DNA of 53,769 nt from an uncultured bacterium (GTDB lineage: Bacteria; Poribacteria; WGA-4E; GCA-2687025): positions 1 to 53,769 of the forward strand of contig CAYYPK010000033.1 of the NCBI GenBank assembly GCA_964473525.1, in the 5' to 3' direction. Positions 13,278 to 49,107 of the stretch are shown here, in pieces. Each line of letters starts with the position of its first letter. The first letter of the stretch is position 1. Made by a program: the position numbers and the translations under genes. A model generated the notes under the pieces. It was not told the origin of the DNA. It saw only the letters and a list, made by a program, of their open reading frames with translations, and ran no database searches.

Positions 13278-14075
13278 TTGAAGCTCGCATTCATCGGCGA
13301 CATTGTGGGGAAGCCCGGCAGGCAGGCAGTCCAGGAAGTCATGCCCAGGCTACACGAGCAGTACGGAGGGTTGGACGCGGTCGTGGCGAACGCCGAGAAC
13401 GCCGCCGGCGGCCGAGGCCTGACCGCGAAGATCGCCAAGGAGATCACGTCGTACGGCGTCGACTTCATGACGACCGGCAACCACGTGTGGGACCAGAAGC
13501 AGTTCCTCAAGGAAATCGACTCCGTTCCCAACGTCGTTCGGCCGCTGAACGTCCCAGACGGCACGCCAGGCGTGGGCGCCAAGGTGTTCGAGACGGCCGG
13601 CGGCGTGCGCGTTGGAGTTCTGAACGTGGCTGGCGCGCTCTTCATGAACTACGACAGCCCGTTCCCGCGCGCGATGCCCGCAGTGGAGCAACTGCGGGAG
13701 GACGCGTCGATCGTCCTCGTCGACATGCACGCCGAGGCGACCTCGGAGAAGATCGGAATGGGGCGCTACCTCGACGGCAAGGCCAGCCTCGTCGTCGGCA
13801 CGCACACGCACGTGCAAACCTCGGACGAGACGATCCTCGCCGACGGCACAGCGTACATCACGGATGTCGGTATGACGGGCGCGCATGATTCCGTCATCGG
13901 CGTCGGCGCCGACATGGTCGTGCGGAAGTTCGTCACGCAGCTGCCCGCGAAGTTCGAGGTCGCGACGGGCGACGTGCAGCTCTGCGGCGTCTACGTCGAG
14001 ATCGACGAGGAGACCGGACGCGCCGTTGCCATCGAGCGCCTCCGGGTCCGCTGCGAGGGCTCCTCCGATGGCTGA
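13278..14075 (+). CDS. YmdB-like TIGR00282 metallophosphoesterase (2',3'-cyclic-nucleotide phosphodiesterase family)
   Basis: MKLAFIGDIVGKPGR...VVANAENAAGGRGLT...GNHVWD...DMHAEATSEK...GTHTHVQTSDE matches YmdB. Confidence 0.85.
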   Translation: MKLAFIGDIVGKPGRQAVQEVMPRLHEQYGGLDAVVANAENAAGGRGLTAKIAKEITSYGVDFMTTGNHVWDQKQFLKEIDSVPNVVRPLNVPDGTPGVGAKVFETAGGVRVGVLNVAGALFMNYDSPFPRAMPAVEQLREDASIVLVDMHAEATSEKIGMGRYLDGKASLVVGTHTHVQTSDETILADGTAYITDVGMTGAHDSVIGVGADMVVRKFVTQLPAKFEVATGDVQLCGVYVEIDEETGRAVAIERLRVRCEGSSDG

Positions 14076-15306
14076 CAACGTCTTCACCGTCCACGGCGTG
14101 ACGGACGCCATTAGCGAACTGATGAGCGAGGCGATACCGCCGCTCTGGGTCGAGGGCGAGGTCTCGAACTTCAGCCAGTCGCAGGCAGGTCACTGGTACT
14201 TCACATTGCGCGACGAGAAGGCGCAGCTGCCGTGTGTGATGTGGCGCAGCACGGCGTGGCGCTTCCGCGATATGAAGCCTGAGACCGGGTCGCTCGTCCG
14301 CGTCCATGGGTCGCTGTCCATCTACGCGCAGGGCGGCAGCTACCAGATACAGGCGACTCGGCTCCTGCCCGTGGGGCAGGGGGCGCTCCAGATCGCCTTC
14401 GAGAATCTTCGCGACAGGCTGCGCCTCGAGGGTCTCTTCGACGAGCGGCAGAAGCGGCCCACTCCCCGCTTCCCCAAGCACATCGGAGTCGTGACATCTC
14501 CGACCGGCGCCGCCGTGCGGGACATCCTCAAGGTGCTCGGCGGACGCTACCCGTGCGCGCGCGTTACCATATACCCGGTCGTAGTACAGGGTGATCGGGC
14601 GGCGAGCGAGATTGCCAGCGCCGTGACCCTGATGAACCGTGTCTCCGACGCGGATGTACTCATCGTCGGACGCGGCGGCGGCTCAATGGAAGACCTCTGG
14701 GCGTTCAACGAGGAGGTCGTGGTCCGCGCCATCGCGGCGTCGACTATCCCGGTGATATCTGCGGTCGGCCACGAGATCGACTACACCCTGGCCGACTTCG
14801 CGGCGGACGCGCGCGCGGCCACGCCATCGGTCGCCGCGGAGCAGGTCGCGCCCGACCGCGCCGCGCTGCTCGGAGAGCTGCGCGGCTTCGAGACGCTGAT
14901 GCGCGACCGCGTCCAGACGCGGCTGCGGCTTGCGCGACGCGAGCTGACGCGGCTGTCAGGCGCGCTGACGCCGCGGAGACAACTGGACCGCGTTCGGCAA
15001 CGCGCGCAGCGCACGGACGACCTCGCGCGCCGCATTGAGGCCGCCATGAGACGCCGTGTAGCGGAGGGACAGGCGCGCGTCGAGGCGCTCGCGGGATCGC
15101 TGAACGCGCTCAGCCCGCTGGCCACGCTTGCACGCGGCTACAGCATCTGCCGGCGCCCGGGGCGTGACGGCGGCATCGTGCGCGCGGCTGAGGACGTCGC
15201 GACGGGCGACGCAATACACGTGACGCTGGGCCGCGGGTCGTTGGCCGCGGAGGTGACCGCGCGTACCGAGGGAGACGGCGATGGCCAAGTCCACGAAGTC
15301 CGATGA
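14068..15306 (+). CDS. xseA: Exodeoxyribonuclease VII large subunit
   Basis: Internal ATG (MADNVFTV...) of ORF 13885..15306, overlapping the ymdB stop by 8 nt. OB-fold region LWVEGEVSNFSQSQAGHWYFTLRDEKAQLPCVMWRS plus catalytic domain. The ORF's 5' extension is Ser/Arg-rich junk. Confidence 0.85.
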   Translation: MADNVFTVHGVTDAISELMSEAIPPLWVEGEVSNFSQSQAGHWYFTLRDEKAQLPCVMWRSTAWRFRDMKPETGSLVRVHGSLSIYAQGGSYQIQATRLLPVGQGALQIAFENLRDRLRLEGLFDERQKRPTPRFPKHIGVVTSPTGAAVRDILKVLGGRYPCARVTIYPVVVQGDRAASEIASAVTLMNRVSDADVLIVGRGGGSMEDLWAFNEEVVVRAIAASTIPVISAVGHEIDYTLADFAADARAATPSVAAEQVAPDRAALLGELRGFETLMRDRVQTRLRLARRELTRLSGALTPRRQLDRVRQRAQRTDDLARRIEAAMRRRVAEGQARVEALAGSLNALSPLATLARGYSICRRPGRDGGIVRAAEDVATGDAIHVTLGRGSLAAEVTARTEGDGDGQVHEVR

Positions 15307-40587: not shown

Positions 40588-42849
40588 ATGACACGTAGAC
40601 ACGGTACGCCGGCAACGGCTCTGGCGCAGGCCCGCTGGGTTCGCTGGGCCGGTTGCGCGGTGGTTCTGGCGGCGCTCCTCAGCGCGTGCGGCGACCCGAC
40701 CCCCGAGCCCGAGCAGTTCGACGCGTTCCTGACGGAGTTCAAGGCAGATGGCCCGTTGGAGGAGGATGTCCCCAAGCGCGTGGCGCGCTTCCGCCGCAGA
40801 GCGGAGCAGCGTGACCTGCGCGACCAACTCACATACGCCTACGCGCGCGCGTTGCAGACGCGCAAGAGGTACGAGGAAGCAGCGGACGCGTACGGCCGCG
40901 CCGACGTCGCCGAGTTCCCTCTACGGGACTTCGCGCGCTACTACCGCGCGCAGTGCCTTGCCAGCCTGGCGCGATACGACGAGGCGGTAGCCGAACACCG
41001 GTCGCTGCTCGAGGCGTTCCCCGACTTCCCCCTGCGTGAGAGCGCCACGTTGCGCGTGGGCAAGGCGCTGGAAAACGCCGGCCGGTATGCGGAGGCGCTC
41101 GCGGTCTTCGAAGAGCTGGCGGAGGGTCTCCCTGATGGGTCTTCCATAGGACGCGAGGCGCAGTACTTCGTCGGGGTCGCCCATGACGGCCTGGACGCGC
41201 CGCAAGCGGCGTATGAGGCGTATCAGCAGGTCGTCGAGGACAAGACGAACGACTCCTTTGCCCAACGGGCGGTGAAGAAGATCCAGAAGCTGGCGGAGGA
41301 GCGGCCGGAGCTCAGGCTGACGCGCGCACACCAGTTCGTGCACGCCCAGGTGCTGCACGGCGGCGGCGAGCGCAAGGAGGCGCGCGCGGTCTGGGAGCGC
41401 ATCCACAAGAACAGCAAGGACGAACTGGCGACGCGGGCGCGCTACGAAATCGGCCGTTCGTACCTTCGGGATCGGCAGTACAACAACGCCATCCGCACGT
41501 TCGAGGGGATGCTCCGGTCGGGTCACCCGAACTACAAGACGCGCGCGCAGTTCCAGCGCATCCTGGCGACTCGCCGGTCAGGGCAGCGCACGCGGGCGTT
41601 GAGGCTCTTCCGCGACTTCATCAGCGAGAACCCGTGGTCGTCCCTGCTGGACGACGTGATGATGGAGTACGGCTGGACGCTCCGGGACGCCCGGCAGTTC
41701 AGCACGGCGGGCAAGGTGTATGGAGAGCTGGTCGCAAAGTTTCCCAAGAGCTCGCACGCGGCCGAGGCGGCCTGGCTTGCGGCGTGGTGTGACATACGGC
41801 TCAAGCGGTACGGAGACAGCATCGCCGCGCTAGACCGACTGATTCTGGGCTACCCCACAAGCAGCTATGCCGGCCGTGGGCACTTCTGGCTAGGTAAGGT
41901 GCACGCGCGTCTCGGGGATTCGCAGGCGGCTGCGGAGTACTACCGTCAAGTCGTCGAGATGGACACGCACTACTATGGCGCCCGCGCGGACGAGAAGCTG
42001 CGCGAGCTGGCGTCGAGCGGAGCCGTGGGTTCAGAATACATCGACTCAGTAAGGCGCATGGTGCGGCAGGCCAGCGTTTCGGTAGACACGCTCCAGCACA
42101 TGCCTATCGCCCGGGTGGAGATTCTCACACGTCTGGACGACAACGCCGGCGCCATCGCCGAGATGGAGGCGCTGCTCGAGCGGCGCAAGGACGACCGCGC
42201 GCTGCTCTACTACCACCTCATGCGCGCGAACGAGGAGCTCGGGCGCTCGTACCGCGCGTACATCATGGCGTACCGCTTCTCGAATCTTCCCGAAGTGAGA
42301 TGGAGTGGCGAGGATCCTCCGGTCGAGGTCGGGCAGTTGCTGTACCCGATTCCGTTCCAGGAGACGCTCGTCGAGGCCGGCGAGGAATTTGGTGTGGACC
42401 CGCACTACCTCGCCGCGATGATGCGTGAGGAGAGTCGGTTCAACGCGAGTGTCGTGTCGTGGGCGGGCGCGTACGGGCTCATGCAGGTGATGCCCGACAC
42501 CGGCAAGCGGATCGCGAAGAAGATCGGCATCGAGGACTTCGACAAGGACATGCTCCTGGACCCCGAGGTGAACATCCGCATGGGGGCGTGGTACATCAGG
42601 TTCCTGCTGGACGAGTTTGGTGGCGAGTTCTCGCTCGTATCGGGCGCCTATAACGCCGGCGAGGGGCGCATGGGGCAGTGGCGCGAGCGGTACTCCGTCG
42701 AGGATCTGGACGAGTTCATCGAACAGGTGCCCTACGACGAAACCCGCAACCACATCAAGAAGGTGATGCACTCGTACCACGTCTACCGGGACCTCTACGG
42801 CGACGAGGAAGAGCCGCGCCAACTGACGCCAGTGGACCACCCCGGCTGA
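40588..42849 (+). CDS. Lipoprotein soluble lytic transglycosylase (TPR/superhelical N-domain plus SLT domain)
   Basis: Lipobox ALLSAC-G. TPR-like repeats are followed by the SLT catalytic motif MMREESRFNASVVSWAGAYGLMQVMPDTG. Confidence 0.8.
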   Translation: MTRRHGTPATALAQARWVRWAGCAVVLAALLSACGDPTPEPEQFDAFLTEFKADGPLEEDVPKRVARFRRRAEQRDLRDQLTYAYARALQTRKRYEEAADAYGRADVAEFPLRDFARYYRAQCLASLARYDEAVAEHRSLLEAFPDFPLRESATLRVGKALENAGRYAEALAVFEELAEGLPDGSSIGREAQYFVGVAHDGLDAPQAAYEAYQQVVEDKTNDSFAQRAVKKIQKLAEERPELRLTRAHQFVHAQVLHGGGERKEARAVWERIHKNSKDELATRARYEIGRSYLRDRQYNNAIRTFEGMLRSGHPNYKTRAQFQRILATRRSGQRTRALRLFRDFISENPWSSLLDDVMMEYGWTLRDARQFSTAGKVYGELVAKFPKSSHAAEAAWLAAWCDIRLKRYGDSIAALDRLILGYPTSSYAGRGHFWLGKVHARLGDSQAAAEYYRQVVEMDTHYYGARADEKLRELASSGAVGSEYIDSVRRMVRQASVSVDTLQHMPIARVEILTRLDDNAGAIAEMEALLERRKDDRALLYYHLMRANEELGRSYRAYIMAYRFSNLPEVRWSGEDPPVEVGQLLYPIPFQETLVEAGEEFGVDPHYLAAMMREESRFNASVVSWAGAYGLMQVMPDTGKRIAKKIGIEDFDKDMLLDPEVNIRMGAWYIRFLLDEFGGEFSLVSGAYNAGEGRMGQWRERYSVEDLDEFIEQVPYDETRNHIKKVMHSYHVYRDLYGDEEEPRQLTPVDHPG

Positions 42850-42870
42850 ACCGTACCCGCGAGAGACGCC

Positions 42871-44331
42871 ATGATCCGCCGGATCATCCTCCGCAACTTC
42901 ATGTCGCATGTCGAAACCGTCATCGAGCCCGCCGACGGTCTGACGGTCATCGTTGGCCCCAACAACTCCGGCAAGAGCGCCATCGTCGAGGCGTTGCGCA
43001 CCCTATGCACCAACGAGAACAGCACGCACGTCATGCGCCACGGCGCGCGGGAGTGCGCCGTCATCGTCGAGACCGACGACGGTCACGTCATCGAGTGGGC
43101 GAGGAAGAAGTCGCCAGCCTACACCGTGGACGACCAGCGGTTCGACCGCATGAGCCGCGGTCGAAGCGGCGTGCCCGCTGAGCTGCACGCGGCCCTTCGG
43201 TTGCCGTGGGTCGCCGGCAGCGGGGATGAGAAGTTCGATGTCCACCTCGGCGAGCAGAAGTCGCCGATATTTCTGCTTGGGTCCGCATCCGACGCCGCGA
43301 AGTTCTTCGCCTCGTCGTCGGACGCCACGAAGCTCCTCGCGATGCAGGGGCGCCACAAGGCGAAGGTCACGCAGGCGCGCGCGCGCAAGCGCGAGCTGGA
43401 CGCCCTTGCCAGCAAGCAGTCGGCGCGGATGGCGGAACTAGACGTCGTTCCTGGCCTGGCGCGCCGGATGGAGGCCGCAGAGGCGGCCTATGGCTCCATC
43501 GTGGCGTCGTCGGACGCGATCAGCAGGCTGGAGTCGGCGATCGGCGCCATACACGCCGCGCGGACGCTGGCCGGGGAACTAGGGGACCTGGCGCGGGCGC
43601 TCGCGCCGCTGGACGCGCCTCCCGTTCTCGATGACACGCAGCTGCTTGCCCACGTGACGACACAGGTCGCGCTGGCTGACGAGGAGTGCGCCGCCGCTGA
43701 CGCGCAGGCGAAGGCGGCAGCTCCGCTGTTAGACCCCCCTGAGCAGCAGCCTGCCACGCAGTTGGCGAAGCACATCGACGACCTTGCCGCGTCCTCAGCG
43801 GCCGCCCAACTTCGTGCGGCGGAAGCCGGCGCGCTCGACGAGGTCGCCTCGCCGCCCCCGCTGGAAGACGCGCAACGGTTGGTTGCCGACATTCGGGCGA
43901 CGCGCGTGGCGCTCGTGCAAGTGGCGACTTGCGAAGTGGAGGGGCGGGCGCTCGACGAGATTGCCGGGCCGCCCGAACTCGCCGACACGGTCACACTGAG
44001 TCGCGACGTGGCGGGCCTGACTGCTGCGCATGCGGCGACGACGACAGCTTCGGCGCGCCACGCACTGCTCGGCGCCCTCTTGGAGACGCCCGCCACGGAC
44101 GACACGCGAGCCGTCACCGAGATGCTCGCGGAGCTGCGCGACGCGACTGCGGCCGCTGCGGCCAACGAGCGTGATCTGGGCGAGGCGAAGGCGGAAGGGC
44201 GCGACGTCGCCGACGCGATCCGCAGGTGGGCGGAAGACAGCGTGACATGTCCCACCTGCGGGGCGGCTCTCGACGCGGAGGCCGTTGCCCAGCACGTCGC
44301 TGGCGCTCACGAGGAGCGGGGCCGTGGCTGA
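42871..44331 (+). CDS. Rad50/SbcC-type ABC ATPase N-lobe plus ascending coiled coil, ending in a CxxC zinc-hook motif (split SMC-like protein, part 1)
   Basis: MIRRIILRNFMSHVETVIEP...IVGPNNSGKSAIVEAL (Walker A), then about 330 aa of Ala/Leu/Glu-rich coiled coil, then ...VTCPTCGAALD 25 residues before the stop. No signature motif or Walker B is present in this ORF. Confidence 0.7.
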   Translation: MIRRIILRNFMSHVETVIEPADGLTVIVGPNNSGKSAIVEALRTLCTNENSTHVMRHGARECAVIVETDDGHVIEWARKKSPAYTVDDQRFDRMSRGRSGVPAELHAALRLPWVAGSGDEKFDVHLGEQKSPIFLLGSASDAAKFFASSSDATKLLAMQGRHKAKVTQARARKRELDALASKQSARMAELDVVPGLARRMEAAEAAYGSIVASSDAISRLESAIGAIHAARTLAGELGDLARALAPLDAPPVLDDTQLLAHVTTQVALADEECAAADAQAKAAAPLLDPPEQQPATQLAKHIDDLAASSAAAQLRAAEAGALDEVASPPPLEDAQRLVADIRATRVALVQVATCEVEGRALDEIAGPPELADTVTLSRDVAGLTAAHAATTTASARHALLGALLETPATDDTRAVTEMLAELRDATAAAAANERDLGEAKAEGRDVADAIRRWAEDSVTCPTCGAALDAEAVAQHVAGAHEERGRG

Positions 44332-45280
44332 TTCCGGCTACCAGGGCCTTCTCATCATCGGCGATCCCCACCTGGAAGGCCGTGTTCCCGGATTCCGCAA
44401 GGATGACTATCCCACGGTTCTACTGGCGAAGCTCGAGTGGTGTCTCGACTACGCCGCGACGCACCAACTGCTGCCGGCGATCCTTGGGGATCTGTTCCAC
44501 ATGCCGCGCGACAACCCCACGTGGATGCTCGCCGCCCTCATGGACATCCTTGACCGCGAGGTGGTGGGCATTTACGGGAACCACGATACGGCGGACCCGG
44601 CCCTCAACGAGAACGACTCGTTGACGCTGCTGGAGCGCGCGGGACGCCTGAGGCTCCTCACGCCTGATGAGCCCTGGCGTGGGGTGATGGGCGGCCGCGC
44701 GGTTGTGGTCGGAGGCTCGTCCTACCGCGTCGCGATCCCTAGCAGTTTCGATGTCGAGGTAGACGCTGACCCGCCGCCGTTCGTCGTGTGGTTGACGCAC
44801 CACGACATTGGCGTACCCGGGTACGATGGCGGCCGCATATCGCCCAAGGAGTTGCCGGGCATTGACGTCGTCGTGAACGGGCACATCCATCGCAGCCTCG
44901 ATACCGTCACGACGGGATGCACGCGGTGGATCACGCCGGGGAACATCTCACGCAGGACGCGCACCGAGGCGACCGAGGAGCACGTCCCGGCGGCGCTGCG
45001 CGTCGATATCGGACGCGACACCGTGGGATTCGAGCGGCCGGTCGTCCCGCACGCGACGTTTACCGATGTCTTCCACGACGCGGTGGCCGAGGCCGCTGTG
45101 GGAGGCACGGAGCAGTCGTCGTCATTCGTGGCCGGCCTCGGCGACATGCTCGCGCGCAAGACGGAGGGCGGCGCGGGCCTCCTGGAGTTCATCCGTCGCA
45201 ATGTCGGCGGATTCGAGGAAGAGGTAGCACGCGAGATTCTCACCCTAGCCGAAGAGGTGACAGACGGTGGCGAGCAATGA
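44324..45280 (+). CDS. Calcineurin-like metallophosphoesterase (Mre11/SbcD-like nuclease)
   Basis: GTG start overlapping the upstream stop (GTGGCTGA). All five phosphoesterase motifs are present: IIGDPHL, GDLFH, GNHD, THHD and GHIHR. Confidence 0.7.
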   Translation: MADSGYQGLLIIGDPHLEGRVPGFRKDDYPTVLLAKLEWCLDYAATHQLLPAILGDLFHMPRDNPTWMLAALMDILDREVVGIYGNHDTADPALNENDSLTLLERAGRLRLLTPDEPWRGVMGGRAVVVGGSSYRVAIPSSFDVEVDADPPPFVVWLTHHDIGVPGYDGGRISPKELPGIDVVVNGHIHRSLDTVTTGCTRWITPGNISRRTRTEATEEHVPAALRVDIGRDTVGFERPVVPHATFTDVFHDAVAEAAVGGTEQSSSFVAGLGDMLARKTEGGAGLLEFIRRNVGGFEEEVAREILTLAEEVTDGGEQ

Positions 45281-45608
45281 ACCGACGGCCGGCGACGCGC
45301 AGACGATCGAGGAGTTGCGCGGCCGCTATGAGAAGCTGAACACGCGGCGCATTCAGGTCCAGGAGCGGCTGGATACCGCGCGACAGCGGCTCTCGGATCT
45401 ACAGAAGCAGGCGCGGGAGAGCTACGGCACGGACGATGTCGCCGAGCTGCAGACCAAGCTCGATGAGATGAAGAGCGAAAACCTGCGCAAACGCGCGGAA
45501 TACCAGGCATCGCTCGACGCCATCGAGGCCGGCCTCGCCAAGGTCGAGGACGAGGCCGCGACTGCCAGCGTCGCGCCGCCCGCCTCGGGCAATGGGGATG
45601 ACGCGTGA
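45267..45608 (+). CDS. Coiled-coil protein, probable descending arm of the split Rad50-like ATPase
   Basis: GTG start overlapping the upstream gene by 14 nt. 113 aa with heptad-like ELRGRYEKLNTRRIQVQERLDTARQRLSDLQKQARE... and a low-complexity tail. Confidence 0.5.
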   Translation: MASNEPTAGDAQTIEELRGRYEKLNTRRIQVQERLDTARQRLSDLQKQARESYGTDDVAELQTKLDEMKSENLRKRAEYQASLDAIEAGLAKVEDEAATASVAPPASGNGDDA

Positions 45609-46291
45609 CGGTGGGCGCGCCGGAGACCACGCCGATCCCGACGCCCGCCGCCACACGGGGGCGAGTCGACCGTCTCGCATGGGAGCGCGACACCCTCGTG
45701 GCGCAGTCGGCCACCACAGCCGAGGAACTGGGTGAGGTCGAGCGCCAGCTTGCCGTCGCCACCAAGGTGACGGACGCGCTGAAGCAGCTCAGCAACACGC
45801 TCTTCCAGCAGACGCTCGAAGTCGTCGAGGAGCAGCTGACCACGGCTCTCCAGGAAATCCTCGAGCAACCGATCCAACTGCGCGCGAATCCCCGATTCCT
45901 CAACAACGCCGCGGCCGTCGACTTCTACATCGAGCGCGACGGCAACCGCGAGCACGTGCTGCGCGGACAGGGCGGCTCCGTGGCGAACGTGCTCTCGGTC
46001 GGCCTACGCATGTTCGCCCTGACAACCCTGGACGAAGCCGAGCACCGGCGGTTCCTCGTGCTCGATGAGCAGGACTGCTGGCTCAAGCCCAACCTCGTCC
46101 CACGCCTTGTCAAGATGGTCCACGATGCTGGCAAGGCGCTGGGGTTCCAGGTTCTGATGATCTCCCACCACGATCCCGAGCCCTTCCAGCGGTACGCCGA
46201 TCGCATGTATCGTCTCGTGCCGCGCGGCGAGGACGGTGTGTCCGTTGAGCGGTTGGACATCTCTCCTGACTCTGTAGATCCCGTGCTGTAG
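45605..46291 (+). CDS. ABC ATPase C-lobe (signature-like motif, Walker B, H-loop) of the split Rad50/SbcC-like protein
   Basis: GTG start overlapping the upstream stop (GTGA). A coiled-coil segment precedes RGQGGSVANVLSVGLRMFAL (signature/Q-like), RRFLVLDEQD (Walker B plus D-loop) and VLMISHHDPE (H-loop). Confidence 0.7.
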   Translation: MTVGAPETTPIPTPAATRGRVDRLAWERDTLVAQSATTAEELGEVERQLAVATKVTDALKQLSNTLFQQTLEVVEEQLTTALQEILEQPIQLRANPRFLNNAAAVDFYIERDGNREHVLRGQGGSVANVLSVGLRMFALTTLDEAEHRRFLVLDEQDCWLKPNLVPRLVKMVHDAGKALGFQVLMISHHDPEPFQRYADRMYRLVPRGEDGVSVERLDISPDSVDPVL

Positions 46292-46431
46292 GGGCGCCGC
46301 CTCGCCATCCACAGAGAAGTGTGGGGTCGGCGCGAGGCCATCCAGCCCGGTGGATGACCGAAATGACCCCAGAAAGGTGGCGGATCGCCGGCCGCGGCGC
46401 CGTCTATACATGTGAAGCCCGGGGGCCGGCG

Positions 46432-49107
46432 ATGGAACACCTACCGGACGACATCCTCGTGAGGCGCGTGCTCGCGGGAGACCAGGAAGCGTTCCGCCCC
46501 CTGGTGGAACGGTACGACCGCACTGTGCACGCCGCCATCTACATCGTGCTTGTCGGCCGCGCGATGCCGGAGGAGATGGCGGAGCTCAGCGGCGACGCGT
46601 TCGAGGCCGCATACCGTGGCCTGCGGGGCCTACAGCGGCGCGAGCGGTTCGGGCCGTGGATCTACCGCATCGCGCGCCGCAAGGCGATCGACTTCACTCG
46701 TCGGGGCCGTCAGCAGGTCGACCACGTGTCCTCGGACCACATGGAGGCGGAGACAGGGCTCGCCCTCGCAGACGCGCGACCCACGGGCCAGGACACCTGG
46801 GAGCGGGACAGCGACCGGCGCCGGATCGTGGAAGCCGCCCTCGCCTCGCTGCCGGAAGAGTTGCGCGTGCCTGCGGTCCTGCGGTACATGCGTGGCTTGG
46901 CCGTGAGGACGATCAGCGAGATCCTGGGCATCCCCATTAGGACGGTGGAACGGCGCGTGTCTCACGCGCGCGAGCGCTTGCGCGCGTACTTTGAGGCGCG
47001 AGGACTCACGAACGAGGTGAAGGCGCTCCAGAGGTGCGCGCTGCCTATCGCGGCCGGGGGAGATGTCGTCGCGCGGACGATGGCCGCTGTACAGGAGGCC
47101 GGTCCACACCAGCGCTCGGAGATTGGGATCAAGACGGCGGGGGCGCCCGCCACGGTCGTGGCGGCCGGTTCGTCGCTTGTGGCGGCGGCCGTGCTCGCGC
47201 TGTCCCTCGTCGTGACGGCGCAGCACGGCGCCGTGCAGCCGCGGCGCGGCGAGGAAGAGCTGCTCGTATCACTCGTGCCGCCAGCAGCCACGAGCGTCCC
47301 AAGGCCCCCCGGGCTCGCGCGGCCCGCGGGCGTGAGAGCGTTCGTCGAGACCGGCGACACGCTCGGGACGTGGCGGCCCGTGGCGCCCACGCTAGACGGC
47401 GCTCCGCCGGTAGCGGACGGCGACCTGCTATGGGGGAGGGACACCGGCTTCCACGTCGCGAACGAGGAAGGCGTGTACCTCGATACAGGACGGCTCTACG
47501 GGACGGTGACGCTAGACGCGCTTGTGGACATACCGACGTTCGGCGGCGCGCACGCGTCGATCGGCCTCGTCATTGACGGCCAGCACCGCGGCGTTGTAAA
47601 CCCCTCCGGCGGCAAGCAGCTCCGCGTCGACGTCGCCAGACACCGCGATGGCATGTGGGCGCACGTCAACCCGGACTGGCCGGCCTTTGCCTCCCCGAAC
47701 TACGACGGGTGGGCGCGCGACAGATCGCAGGCGTGGGTGGGTATCGCTGAGGCCAGCGCGCGCCCTACCCACGTGCGGCTCGTGCACCGCACCGACCTGG
47801 GCGCCTACGACATCTACATCGACGGTGTGCTGTCGGCGTCGTCAGTGCGGACGCCGGCGACGCGTGGGTTGCCCGTCACTGGGGCCGCGTTTGCCTCATG
47901 CGCCCGTGAGATTCCCGCGCCGATGCGGGTGCTGGGCCTGGAACTATGGGTGGACGGCCCCGACCTCGCGCCCCGCCGGCCAGACTACGTCGTCCGTGAC
48001 CCTGTAATGACGGATCCGGCAGCTGTCGCCACCCGTGTGCAGCAGAGGGTGGCGAACGGCGACCTCCGCGAGGCAAAGGATCTACTCCTGATGCTGAGGA
48101 TGCTCCGGGGACCCAGAGACGCCGTCGAACGCGCCGAAGAGCTCGTCCTCGCCCTCGAGCGCCGGCACGAGGCCGCCGTCCCGGCGATTGAGGCGAGGCT
48201 CGCGCGGCTGCGCACGGCCGCTGCGGACATCGCGCCCTCCGACACGCCGCTCGCTCCCGTGCCTGCGGCTACCCGCTATCTGCGTTGGGTCTGGCGTAAC
48301 TCAGACGTACAGTGGGCGCACTTCGACGTCGATTGGGAGGGCCAGGGCCACCCGCGTGTGCTTGTGGCCCTTCCCCGGGGAGACTACGTGGACGGGATCC
48401 ACCGGTTCGTATTCACTAGCCTGCTCGCCGAGTCTTACCGGCGACTCACGGGCCAGAACGGGGCGTTGACGGTGTCGTTGCGAGCCCCCGCGGACCTGCA
48501 GCACGAGGCGCTGGCCAACAACTGGCACGGTGACAGGCCCGAGGGCGGCCGGCCTGTTCGTGACGGGGTCGATGCCCTGCTGACCGTGGTCGAGGACGCC
48601 GTCGCCTTCGGCGCTCTGGCGGGCGCGCTCCCCAAGGCGGAGCAGTTGGCGTCGCGGCACGACGGTGGCGAGCAGGCAGAAGCCGCGCGTCGGCTGGTGG
48701 CGCCTTTCAGGCGAACGTGGGACAGGGATCTGGCGGCGGCCGACGTCTGGTGTCGAGGCATTGCTCGCGGCCTCGACGACCTCAGGAGTGGGTACCCCTC
48801 GCCCCACGGTTCTCTGAACGGTTGGCTGACGGCGTGCGTGCCCGACGCGAGCGTGCGTGAGGGCGCGGACGGCGAAGCGTACGTGACCCTCCCATCACCC
48901 ATGCACTACAGCACGGCGCGCCTCATGCGCCTGTCACGCGATCTCGCCGAGGTCAGCGCCCTTCTCGACGGTGGTCGGCGTGCGACCGACGTGTTCCTGT
49001 GCGTTCCCAACCAGCCACAGCACGTGGTTGGCTTCGCCAGGCCTCCGGCGCCGCGGGACGGGCAGACCACGACGGACGACCTCGCCGTGGCGGCCGTCGG
49101 CAGGTAG
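46432..49107 (+). CDS. ECF sigma factor fused to a transmembrane helix and a large (~600 aa) C-terminal extracytoplasmic domain (one-polypeptide sigma/anti-sigma-like protein)
   Basis: Internal start MEHLPDDILVRRVLAGDQEAF. Sigma-2 region (FRPLVERYDRTVHAAIYIV) and sigma-4 (LPEELRVPAVLRYMRGLAVRTISEILGIPIRTVERRVSHARERL), then TM segment VVAAGSSLVAAAVLALSLVV, then a long domain of unknown fold. Confidence 0.7.
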   Translation: MEHLPDDILVRRVLAGDQEAFRPLVERYDRTVHAAIYIVLVGRAMPEEMAELSGDAFEAAYRGLRGLQRRERFGPWIYRIARRKAIDFTRRGRQQVDHVSSDHMEAETGLALADARPTGQDTWERDSDRRRIVEAALASLPEELRVPAVLRYMRGLAVRTISEILGIPIRTVERRVSHARERLRAYFEARGLTNEVKALQRCALPIAAGGDVVARTMAAVQEAGPHQRSEIGIKTAGAPATVVAAGSSLVAAAVLALSLVVTAQHGAVQPRRGEEELLVSLVPPAATSVPRPPGLARPAGVRAFVETGDTLGTWRPVAPTLDGAPPVADGDLLWGRDTGFHVANEEGVYLDTGRLYGTVTLDALVDIPTFGGAHASIGLVIDGQHRGVVNPSGGKQLRVDVARHRDGMWAHVNPDWPAFASPNYDGWARDRSQAWVGIAEASARPTHVRLVHRTDLGAYDIYIDGVLSASSVRTPATRGLPVTGAAFASCAREIPAPMRVLGLELWVDGPDLAPRRPDYVVRDPVMTDPAAVATRVQQRVANGDLREAKDLLLMLRMLRGPRDAVERAEELVLALERRHEAAVPAIEARLARLRTAAADIAPSDTPLAPVPAATRYLRWVWRNSDVQWAHFDVDWEGQGHPRVLVALPRGDYVDGIHRFVFTSLLAESYRRLTGQNGALTVSLRAPADLQHEALANNWHGDRPEGGRPVRDGVDALLTVVEDAVAFGALAGALPKAEQLASRHDGGEQAEAARRLVAPFRRTWDRDLAAADVWCRGIARGLDDLRSGYPSPHGSLNGWLTACVPDASVREGADGEAYVTLPSPMHYSTARLMRLSRDLAEVSALLDGGRRATDVFLCVPNQPQHVVGFARPPAPRDGQTTTDDLAVAAVGR

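Follow-up and report, generated by a model that had tools for sequence, protein, structure and literature searches.

A predicted Rad50/SMC-type ATPase head divided between two genes of a four-gene cassette in Poribacteria

In Rad50, SbcC and SMC proteins the ATPase head has two lobes linked through a long hairpin coiled coil, and how the hook or hinge signals to the head is, to our knowledge, an open mechanistic question. The locus described here is a four-gene cassette (g1 to g4) at positions 42871-46291 of a 53,769-nucleotide (nt) contig of an uncultured Poribacteria bacterium (CAYYPK010000033.1; this whole analysed stretch is called the window). The closest described systems are SbcCD and Mre11-Rad50, including gp46/gp47 of T4. 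The cassette has in common with them the head motifs of ATP-binding cassette (ABC) ATPases, i.e., Walker A, Q-loop, signature, Walker B, D-loop and H-loop, as well as a long helical arm ending in CP-x-CG and a coupled metallophosphoesterase gene. It differs from them in that the predicted head is assembled from two polypeptides (relatives have a single, circularly permuted chain instead), and in that an extra obligatory small coiled-coil subunit, g3, is encoded. Whereas the CxxC motif of Rad50 is found at the apex of a hairpin formed within one chain, that of g1 is at a free C-terminus, and the arm is made of 39-amino-acid (aa) helix-linker modules in variable number. Gene order differs as well, and the putative nuclease g2 is only 318 aa long and has no demonstrable Mre11-specific similarity. 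The genes are:

42871..44331, + strand: g1, 486 aa; ABC-ATPase N-lobe, segmented helical arm and C-terminal CxxC
44324..45280, + strand: g2, 318 aa; calcineurin-like metallophosphoesterase with a conserved C-terminal helical module
45267..45608, + strand: g3, 113 aa; small coiled-coil protein with a central YGTDD motif
45605..46291, + strand: g4, 228 aa; arm-base helix and ABC-ATPase C-lobe

Whereas Rad50 and SbcC are single polypeptides with the lobes joined by an antiparallel coiled coil, here g2 and g3 lie between the lobes. Kinship with SbcC/Rad50 is not new in itself, since annotation pipelines already label the halves as 'exonuclease SbcC', 'DNA repair exonuclease SbcCD ATPase subunit' or 'DNA repair protein'.

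A further ATPase-phosphoesterase pair is SbcEF (YhaN/YhaO) of Bacillus subtilis, where YhaN is a single polypeptide of ~960 aa with a central domain. YhaN is neither split nor permuted, and SbcEF has no equivalent of g3. SbcEF, which is not the same as SbcCD, combines an SMC-like ATPase with a phosphoesterase and has a role in the repair of double-strand breaks (PMC2811018). The match of g1 to the YhaN-type Pfam profile AAA_27 (24.5 bits at a cut-off of 22) covers profile positions 24-97 only. Lamassu was derived from SbcCD-like ancestors and assigned to the CxxC-SMC class (PMC12663957). Lamassu, RloC and DndD resemble the cassette in belonging to this class and in having a small accessory subunit encoded beside the ATPase. 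LmuB differs in being a single chain with a hairpin arm, and the Lamassu effectors are Cap4, Sir2, protease and similar, not a metallophosphoesterase. PADLOC models of LmuB match just residues 2-80 of g1 (E 1e-8) and no PADLOC match to LmuA or LmuC was found in the cassette, which does not qualify as Lamassu. Models of Gabija/OLD (GajA) match ~50 residues around the P-loop, and the cassette contains neither Toprim nor helicase. Nor is it a MADS system: the mad3 profile is split over g1 and g4, and no other mad1-8 genes are conserved nearby. No hinge of the type found in Smc, MukB or JetC was recognised by Pfam, by NCBIfam or in the g1 model, and there is no kleisin-like neighbour. Pfam, NCBIfam and PADLOC contain no dedicated model for the split or permuted form.

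The preliminary interpretation of this DNA, made from the letters alone (the sequence-only reading), knew of no described module with this gene order. In the literature we likewise found no split or permuted Rad50/SbcC, no g3 subunit and no 39-aa modules, though an earlier classification might mention them; the fusion of Mre11 and Rad50 in Mimivirus and the jumbo-phage survey concern other arrangements than a split or permuted one. Novelty is limited by the generic annotation which the halves already have and by their membership in a large family.

All four open reading frames (ORFs) are present on the + strand with the boundaries first proposed, and the overlapping junctions read exactly as they had been reported. 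g2 starts with a GTG at 44324 and overlaps the stop of g1 by 8 nt (GTGGCTGA), g3 starts with a GTG at 45267 inside g2 (14-nt overlap), and the GTG of g4 at 45605 sits on the stop of g3 (GTGA, 4-nt overlap). Purine-rich Shine-Dalgarno-like sequences (GAGGAG, GAGGTG and GGGGA) are located 5-8 nt 5' of these three internal starts. The longest g2 ORF would begin with a TTG at 44285, and the GTG at 44324 gives the 318-aa product; 44324 is the likely start, because homologues begin there and the 8-nt g1/g2 overlap recurs in other loci. Equal stoichiometry of the four proteins, as stated in the sequence-only reading, would be a prediction from translational coupling.

Judging by sequence and by predicted structures, g1 and g4 together carry every ABC ATPase motif, each of them like the matching half-head of Rad50/SMC proteins. 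The motifs originally quoted are all there: MIRRIILRNFMSHV, GPNNSGKS and CPTCG in g1; RGQGGS, RRFLVLDEQD and MISHHD in g4. Those of the head are:

42955..42978, + strand: Walker A GPNNSGKS, g1 aa 29-36; G29, N32, G34, K35 and S36 invariant in 108 sequences
43255..43257, + strand: Q-loop glutamine Q129 of g1 (GEQKSPIFLL), invariant in the family alignment
45965..45979, + strand: signature-like GQGGS, g4 aa 121-125; G121, G123, G124 and S125 invariant in 115 sequences
46052..46075, + strand: Walker B and D-loop FLVLDEQD, g4 aa 150-157; L151, L153, D154, E155, Q156 and D157 invariant
46163..46171, + strand: H-loop SHH, g4 aa 187-189; S187, H188 and H189 invariant

The N-lobe is recognised in g1, for which at least 272 homologues of 445-560 aa were found. 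Pfam families AAA_23 (1.6e-12), AAA_15 and SMC_N match residues 1-60 only, and the best PDB sequence match is Pyrococcus furiosus Rad50. The AlphaFold model built with 108 homologues (mean predicted local distance difference test score, pLDDT, 81.6) has an N-lobe at residues 1-125 followed by a low-confidence stretch, 126-151, around the Q-loop; this stretch beside Q129 is where contact with the missing C-lobe would be expected. Foldseek search with this model gave N-lobes of SMC, Rad50 and RecF as the best matches.

g4 is barely recognisable as a single sequence: a single-sequence PDB search gave nothing useful, nor did hhalign of the g4 profile against full-length Escherichia coli SbcC give anything. 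The family profile, when compared with PDB sequences, matches a cohesin SMC head (1.6e-4). In the AlphaFold model (pLDDT 78.6) a 73-residue helix (14-86) is followed by an alpha/beta lobe, and the best Foldseek matches are C-terminal half-chains of P. furiosus Rad50 (9a9j_B, 3qkr_B, 1f2u_B) and SMC heads. C158 and W159, just after the Walker B/D-loop, are invariant too. The PADLOC model mad3 describes a 374-aa single-chain ABC protein, of which g1 matches positions 1-58 and g4 positions 186-348 (E about 5e-7 each). With N-lobe and C-lobe motifs thus divided and the mad3 profile split in the same manner, g1 and g4 together would provide the complete motif set of a Rad50/SMC-type head. The initial proposal that they are two halves of one ABC ATPase of this type is borne out by Pfam, by the model matches and by the motif invariance.

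The same four-gene order had been suggested as something to look for in related genomes. Of the related loci, 68 extend far enough downstream to show the order, and it is the same in 68/68. These come mainly from Planctomycetota and Poribacteria, with others from Desulfobacterales, Bipolaricaulia and Sumerlaeia, and the majority have an 8-nt overlap of g1 and g2. Such an order together with such a recurring overlap places the arrangement far beyond chance. Overlapping genes in the same order are present in Thalassoglobus polymorphus (CP036267), in a Bipolaricaulia metagenome-assembled genome (MAG) and on a 440-kb JGI contig, the split loci include two complete genomes (CP036267 and NZ_CP195793), and the exact g4 protein is encoded within the same gene layout on five contigs from other metagenome assemblies. 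The split is therefore a real arrangement and no assembly artefact, as its recurrence in independent contigs and in all 68 loci shows.

It is not a one-off either, but a large family with g1 relatives in 294 species genomes and 2277 g4 homologues of ~225-245 aa. The closest g1 relatives (52-54% identity) belong to Candidatus Poribacteria MAGs; the others are mostly from Planctomycetota, with a few from Desulfobacterales, Bipolaricaulia, Sumerlaeia and other groups. The g4 proteins of Planctomycetota, Desulfobacterales and Bipolaricaulia share ~60% identity with that of the window lineage. No fifth gene is conserved with the cassette, as clusters of flanking ORFs comprise at most 9 loci if antisense shadows of g1-g4 are left aside. 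We also surveyed the three nearest ORFs on each side of 25 diverse loci (127 ORFs). These neighbours are heterogeneous and mostly metabolic, with a maximum of 3 members per family and without enrichment in defence genes.

Distant homologues of g4 (~27-32% identity) were found on megaplasmids by tblastn. In Bosea sp. ANAM02, residues 21-210 of a 639-aa 'AAA family ATPase' (WP_173049974.1) align with g4 (2e-25), residues 223-482 correspond to the N-lobe and arm of g1, and residues 618-636 to the CPTCG part of g1. A g3 homologue is encoded 5' of this ATPase and a g2 homologue, annotated as metallophosphoesterase, 3' of it. According to BLASTP, identity to the Bosea proteins is 32% for the g4 part, 34% for g2, 32% for g3 and 24% for the g1 part (including CPTCG). 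The three-gene layout is the same on plasmids of Vibrio parahaemolyticus (ATPase WP_264401824.1), Alteromonas mediterranea and Variovorax (WP_102906931.1); the g3 homologue preceding the ATPase gene scores 8.1e-10 in Vibrio and weakly, 4.8e-4, in Alteromonas.

An exhaustive search with the g4-family profile yielded 2124 cluster representatives, 702 of them at E <= 1e-10, and the best 150 matches included 78 proteins of at least 580 aa, which were taken as the permuted set. The g4-like part precedes the g1-like part in 78/78 and CxxC is located within the last 60 residues in 78/78, while Walker A lies at residues 180-320 in 76/78 and PP-linker repeats are detectable in 16/78. Positions 145-216 of Pfam SMC_N are matched upstream of positions 1-50 in the permuted proteins, and residues 247-667 of the Vibrio protein follow positions 3-447 of the 878-position Rad50 model, i.e., run from the N-lobe towards the hook. 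On this alignment evidence, the plasmid ATPases are circularly permuted Rad50-like proteins, apparently opened at the hook and with the native termini joined.

All four cassette modules are homologous to those of the permuted megaplasmid operons, and CxxC is C-terminal in both. The plasmid forms have the lobes fused in a chain of 546-782 aa, in an operon which starts with g3, whereas in the window the lobes are encoded by separate genes of a chromosome and the cassette starts with g1. Compared at the level of sequence, the cyclic gene order g1, g2, g3, g4 is identical in the split and permuted forms and merely rotated in the window. This changes the original interpretation in which a nuclease gene had been inserted between the halves: g2 does lie between g1 and g4, but the cyclic order is conserved, so g2 keeps its place in a rotated operon and was not inserted into a split gene. 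One form could arise from the other through a tandem duplication whose end-points fall within the inter-lobe linker. Either the window cassette arose by rotation and fission or the plasmid form by fusion; homology is consistent with the former, the cassette then descending from the megaplasmid operon of g3, permuted ATPase and g2.

Proteins with a C-lobe standing alone are known from phages. The best structural matches of g4 in BFVD are of this kind (193-219 aa), the top one being A0A6J7XLB5 (215 aa; TM-score 0.72-0.76) and another A0A8S5ME05 (219 aa). These ~200-aa phage proteins consist of the helix and C-lobe, have the same fold as g4 and are 17-27% identical to it, which shows that natural splitting of the Rad50-like head recurs. 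The g4 profile also matches gp2 of Microbacterium phage Magritte (216 aa, annotated as 'exonuclease'; locus L091, 1-2377) at 1e-19, and a phage version of the split head which includes gp2 may exist, although the g1 profile gave no match to Magritte gp4 (361 aa, annotated as 'ASCE ATPase'). No close relatives were found in IMG/VR by pattern scan for the g4 family. Among the other g4-profile matches, three proteins of 475-531 aa (P0249, P0257 and P0268) contain the g4-like helix and C-lobe (E 1e-63 to 1e-77) followed by ~300 residues without a Pfam or PADLOC match; no N-lobe follows.

The arm of g1 and its end comprise:

43324..43602, + strand: arm base helices, g1 aa 152-244 (model helices 152-190 and 193-244)
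43591..44175, + strand: five 39-aa modules, g1 aa ~241-435, consensus ALxxLxxPPxLxDxxxLxxLIxxL
44248..44262, + strand: CPTCG zinc-hook-like motif, g1 aa 460-464; C460 and C463 invariant

It had been described as a coiled coil of ~330 aa. A helical arm is indeed predicted, yet not a continuous one, as ~90 aa of base helices are followed by the five modules and by a 45-aa helix. Each module consists of a ~28-aa helix and an 11-aa Pro-Pro linker (Pro-Pro anchors at aa 250, 289, 328, 367 and 407), and the model contains, after the base helices, four 28-aa helices separated by 11-aa loops and then the 45-aa helix leading to CxxC. A repeat hidden Markov model (HMM) applied to g1 homologues detected a period of 38-40 aa in 150 of ~190 inter-repeat spacings. 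The lengths of g1 proteins cluster near 404, 445, 485, 520 and 562 aa, i.e., they change in steps of one repeat, and a single protein reaches 754 aa. Conservation is high in the linker and at the helix ends and the helix centres vary; no tandem repeat was found at the DNA level under the modules. Mean-field direct coupling analysis of 504 adjacent g1 repeat pairs, aimed at hairpin packing of adjoining helices, gave a signal dominated by conserved linker positions and repeat homogenisation.

Across the loci g1 varies from 402 to 754 aa while g3 (96-118 aa) and g4 (mostly ~212-250 aa) are nearly constant. As the number of g1 repeats varies in this way, the ascending arm of g1 cannot be matched residue for residue by g3 and the g4 helix, and the simple antiparallel pairing of g1 with g3 plus g4 first proposed has to be given up. 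Only the arm base (g1 152-244 with g4 14-86) looks, in the models, like a canonical antiparallel stub; candidate partners of the modules are each other, a second g1 or g3. The ~754-aa homologue, from a Planctomycetota MAG (L056, 6995-9265), exceeds the usual 402-562 aa and has six repeats found by the HMM; it may contain many degenerate modules or an extra domain, or have a mis-picked start.

CPTCG, in which P461 and G464 are at least 90% conserved, is located 23 aa from the free C-terminus of g1, at the end of the arm, and its sequence predicts a zinc hook role. In the model it forms a beta knuckle (458-466) followed by a short terminal helix. The g1 tail (window ~44263-44328) that follows CxxC closes with GGHxH in many homologues, the consensus being CPTCGxxLDPxRLxxxAxxxxGGHxH; the window protein has H475 and H480 there, and several homologues lack these histidines. 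Going by these residues, an intramolecular Cys2His2 zinc site in place of an intermolecular hook is a possibility.

g2 matches Pfam Metallophos (1.5e-6; 29.3 bits at a cut-off of 21.5). Its motifs GDPH, GD, GNHD, HH and GHIH are all invariant, so that calcineurin-like phosphoesterase motifs I-VI are intact, and the invariant or near-invariant residues are D14, H16, G55, D56, N86, H87, D88, H159, H160, G186, H187 and H189. A C-terminal module (~266-308) is conserved as well (S266, F268, G271, L272, G285, L286, F289, A302, I305 and L308). The only NCBIfam match, PdeM (1.3e-4), is under its cut-off, and a single-sequence PDB search gave nothing useful. The Mre11/SbcD-like phosphoesterase of the sequence-only reading is thus confirmed as an intact metallophosphoesterase, and its specific membership in Mre11/SbcD is not, the PDB and hhalign scores given below being weak.

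g3 was found in 68/68 loci and has generic coiled-coil matches only. When checked, it proved unrelated to both the g1 repeats and the g4 helix. It may be the descending arm, as was first thought. On one metagenome contig of the same population (L004 ~850-1360, corresponding to window 45201-45700) an 8-nt insertion shifts the g3 frame, giving a called product of 46 instead of 113 aa; the insertion is a true variant in the population or an error of assembly.

Putting these results together, we consider it more probable than not that the cassette encodes a four-subunit ATP-dependent nuclease acting on DNA ends or DNA structures, of the Mre11-Rad50/SbcCD kind and the 'CxxC-SMC' class. An SbcCD/Mre11-Rad50-like function is favoured because of the Rad50-type head, the hook motif, the intact phosphoesterase and the tight coupling of the genes, to which the DNA-metabolism neighbours of the plasmid forms add support: LigD in Bosea, RecQ in Alteromonas, a helicase and a topoisomerase on the Vibrio megaplasmid, and RecJ, next to RepB/ParAB, on Variovorax plasmid 2.

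If so, g1 and g4 would co-fold into one composite head, and two such heads would sandwich two ATP, as in Rad50. By analogy with Rad50/SMC head structures, helix 14-86 of g4 would pair in antiparallel orientation with g1 152-244 to form the arm base, on which the presumed nuclease subunit g2 may dock via its C-terminal helical module, like the Rad50-binding domain of Mre11/SbcD. As in the Rad50 hook, a Zn2+ ion bound jointly by two g1 CxxC motifs could link two complexes or two arms. The conserved small coiled-coil partner g3 may be an adaptor, or else it may supply the distal part of the descending strand.

Several observations weigh against this nuclease assignment. g1 and g4 stay far (about 20-fold) under every curated Rad50/SbcC model cut-off, the best NCBIfam Rad50 model reaching 35.5 bits (cut-off 700). 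With Pfam SMC_N (cut-off 40), g1 scores 32.5 bits and g4 14.2 bits. Among PDB sequences, Vps29 (E 0.05) scores better with the g2 profile than Mre11 does (E 0.24-0.33), and the hhalign alignment of g2 with E. coli SbcD (31% probability) is confined to motifs I-III. Arm geometry is unlike that of Rad50, as the ascending strand, growing in 39-aa steps, is longer than g3 plus the g4 helix. Finally, the distribution is patchy, with g1 relatives in 294/185,579 species-level genomes (one per species) by pattern scan; together with the ~60% identity of g4 across phyla, this would also agree with an accessory or conflict system that spreads horizontally.

The last point leads to defence, i.e., an SMC-like anti-phage or anti-plasmid system comparable to Lamassu, Gabija or retron-PtuA, in which the split sensor would detect foreign DNA ends and g2, as the phosphoesterase effector, would degrade the DNA of the invader or the host. 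Besides the spread of the family, this explanation can draw on the relatives on megaplasmids, the single phage match, the PADLOC matches to AriA, GajA, LmuB and mad3 and the origin of Lamassu from SbcCD (PMC12663957). The PADLOC matches are weak, though, and cover P-loop or Walker B stretches only, in the permuted relatives as well; genes for partners from known defence systems are absent, and the 127 neighbouring ORFs include neither a recurrent family nor an excess of defence genes. The cassette is also placed on a housekeeping chromosome with synteny kept in a Poribacteria MAG, and its effector is of the canonical SbcC/Rad50 partner type and not a promiscuous toxin domain. We therefore regard a defence role as unlikely. 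Even less likely in our view is a recombination or replication-maintenance module of mobile elements, like T4 gp46/gp47 or the SbcCD-type proteins of jumbo phages, which was captured by chromosomes and whose end processing would serve the element rather than the host. The location of the permuted form next to RepB/ParAB and RecJ or helicase and topoisomerase genes agrees with such an origin, as do the stand-alone C-lobe proteins among the best BFVD matches and the match to Magritte gp2. Against it stand the 68 chromosomal loci, where no integrase, replication or phage genes are conserved as neighbours, the lack of close IMG/VR relatives in the pattern scan and the base composition of the cassette, equal to that of its flanks.

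A decayed or mis-assembled sbcC, whether a frameshifted single gene or a chimeric contig, is effectively refuted. The frameshifted g3 of contig L004 is what could be quoted in its favour, but the boundaries and order are the same in five independent contigs and in 68 loci of many phyla, every catalytic motif is invariant and a different gene, g2, separates the halves. Artefact or pseudogene is excluded by this conservation.

The nuclease of the Mre11-Rad50/SbcCD kind remains the interpretation we prefer. A more far-reaching and rather doubtful proposal is that the family constitutes a distinct widespread Rad50-like class with open non-hairpin arms, a hook at the chain end, arm length in quanta of 39 aa and pairing between subunits (g1-g1 or g1-g3). 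Its tethering or measuring geometry would be unlike that of solved SMC/Rad50 structures, and its role might lie outside double-strand-break repair, e.g., in megaplasmid maintenance or foreign-DNA sensing.

In this family the chain appears to be cut at the hook, with one lineage keeping the lobes as separate proteins and another joining them in reverse order. Three questions can therefore be put to a system that already exists in nature: does function require an arm that is covalently continuous, what is the role of a hook at a chain end, and what is the effect of arm length? Thousands of members are now labelled 'AAA family ATPase', 'hypothetical protein' or 'DNA repair protein', and searches for SbcC/Rad50 based on domain order would miss or mis-call them, which matters for the annotation of Planctomycetota, Poribacteria and megaplasmids.

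The window itself is an ordinary housekeeping chromosome with genes for MetH, an MTHFR fusion, GlnA (glutamine synthetase), XseA and ABC-transporter components, and the base composition of the cassette is the same as in its flanks. The flanking genes (Poly_export, SLT-TPR, HflX, PhyH) are shared with a Poribacteria MAG. Searches found no tRNA or Rfam matches and no promoter-like sites, and the count of terminator-like sites is not above the shuffled expectation. The large subunit of exonuclease VII (XseA, 13885-15306, + strand), ~28 kb 5' of the cassette, is the sole other DNA-repair nuclease recognised among the ten large window ORFs scanned, which include no canonical sbcC or sbcD.

Directly 3' of g4 is a gene for a 928-aa protein (46321-49107, + strand), kept in close relatives. 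It contains ECF-type sigma-70 regions 2/4 at residues 61-222 and an unannotated extension of ~700 aa. On the 5' side, a 753-aa lytic transglycosylase with TPR and SLT domains (40588-42849, + strand) ends 21 nt before g1 and may be co-transcribed with it. Its pairing with the cassette is kept in Poribacteria-like relatives; SLT-domain genes also occur near the permuted operons of the Variovorax and Vibrio plasmids, probably by coincidence. On contig L001, 99.8% identical to the window (L001 2992-6727 versus window 40588-44331) with one indel, the gene caller stretched the SLT gene to 861 aa and cut g1 to 401 aa (protein P0001). It is an example of how a g1 start comes to be mis-annotated.

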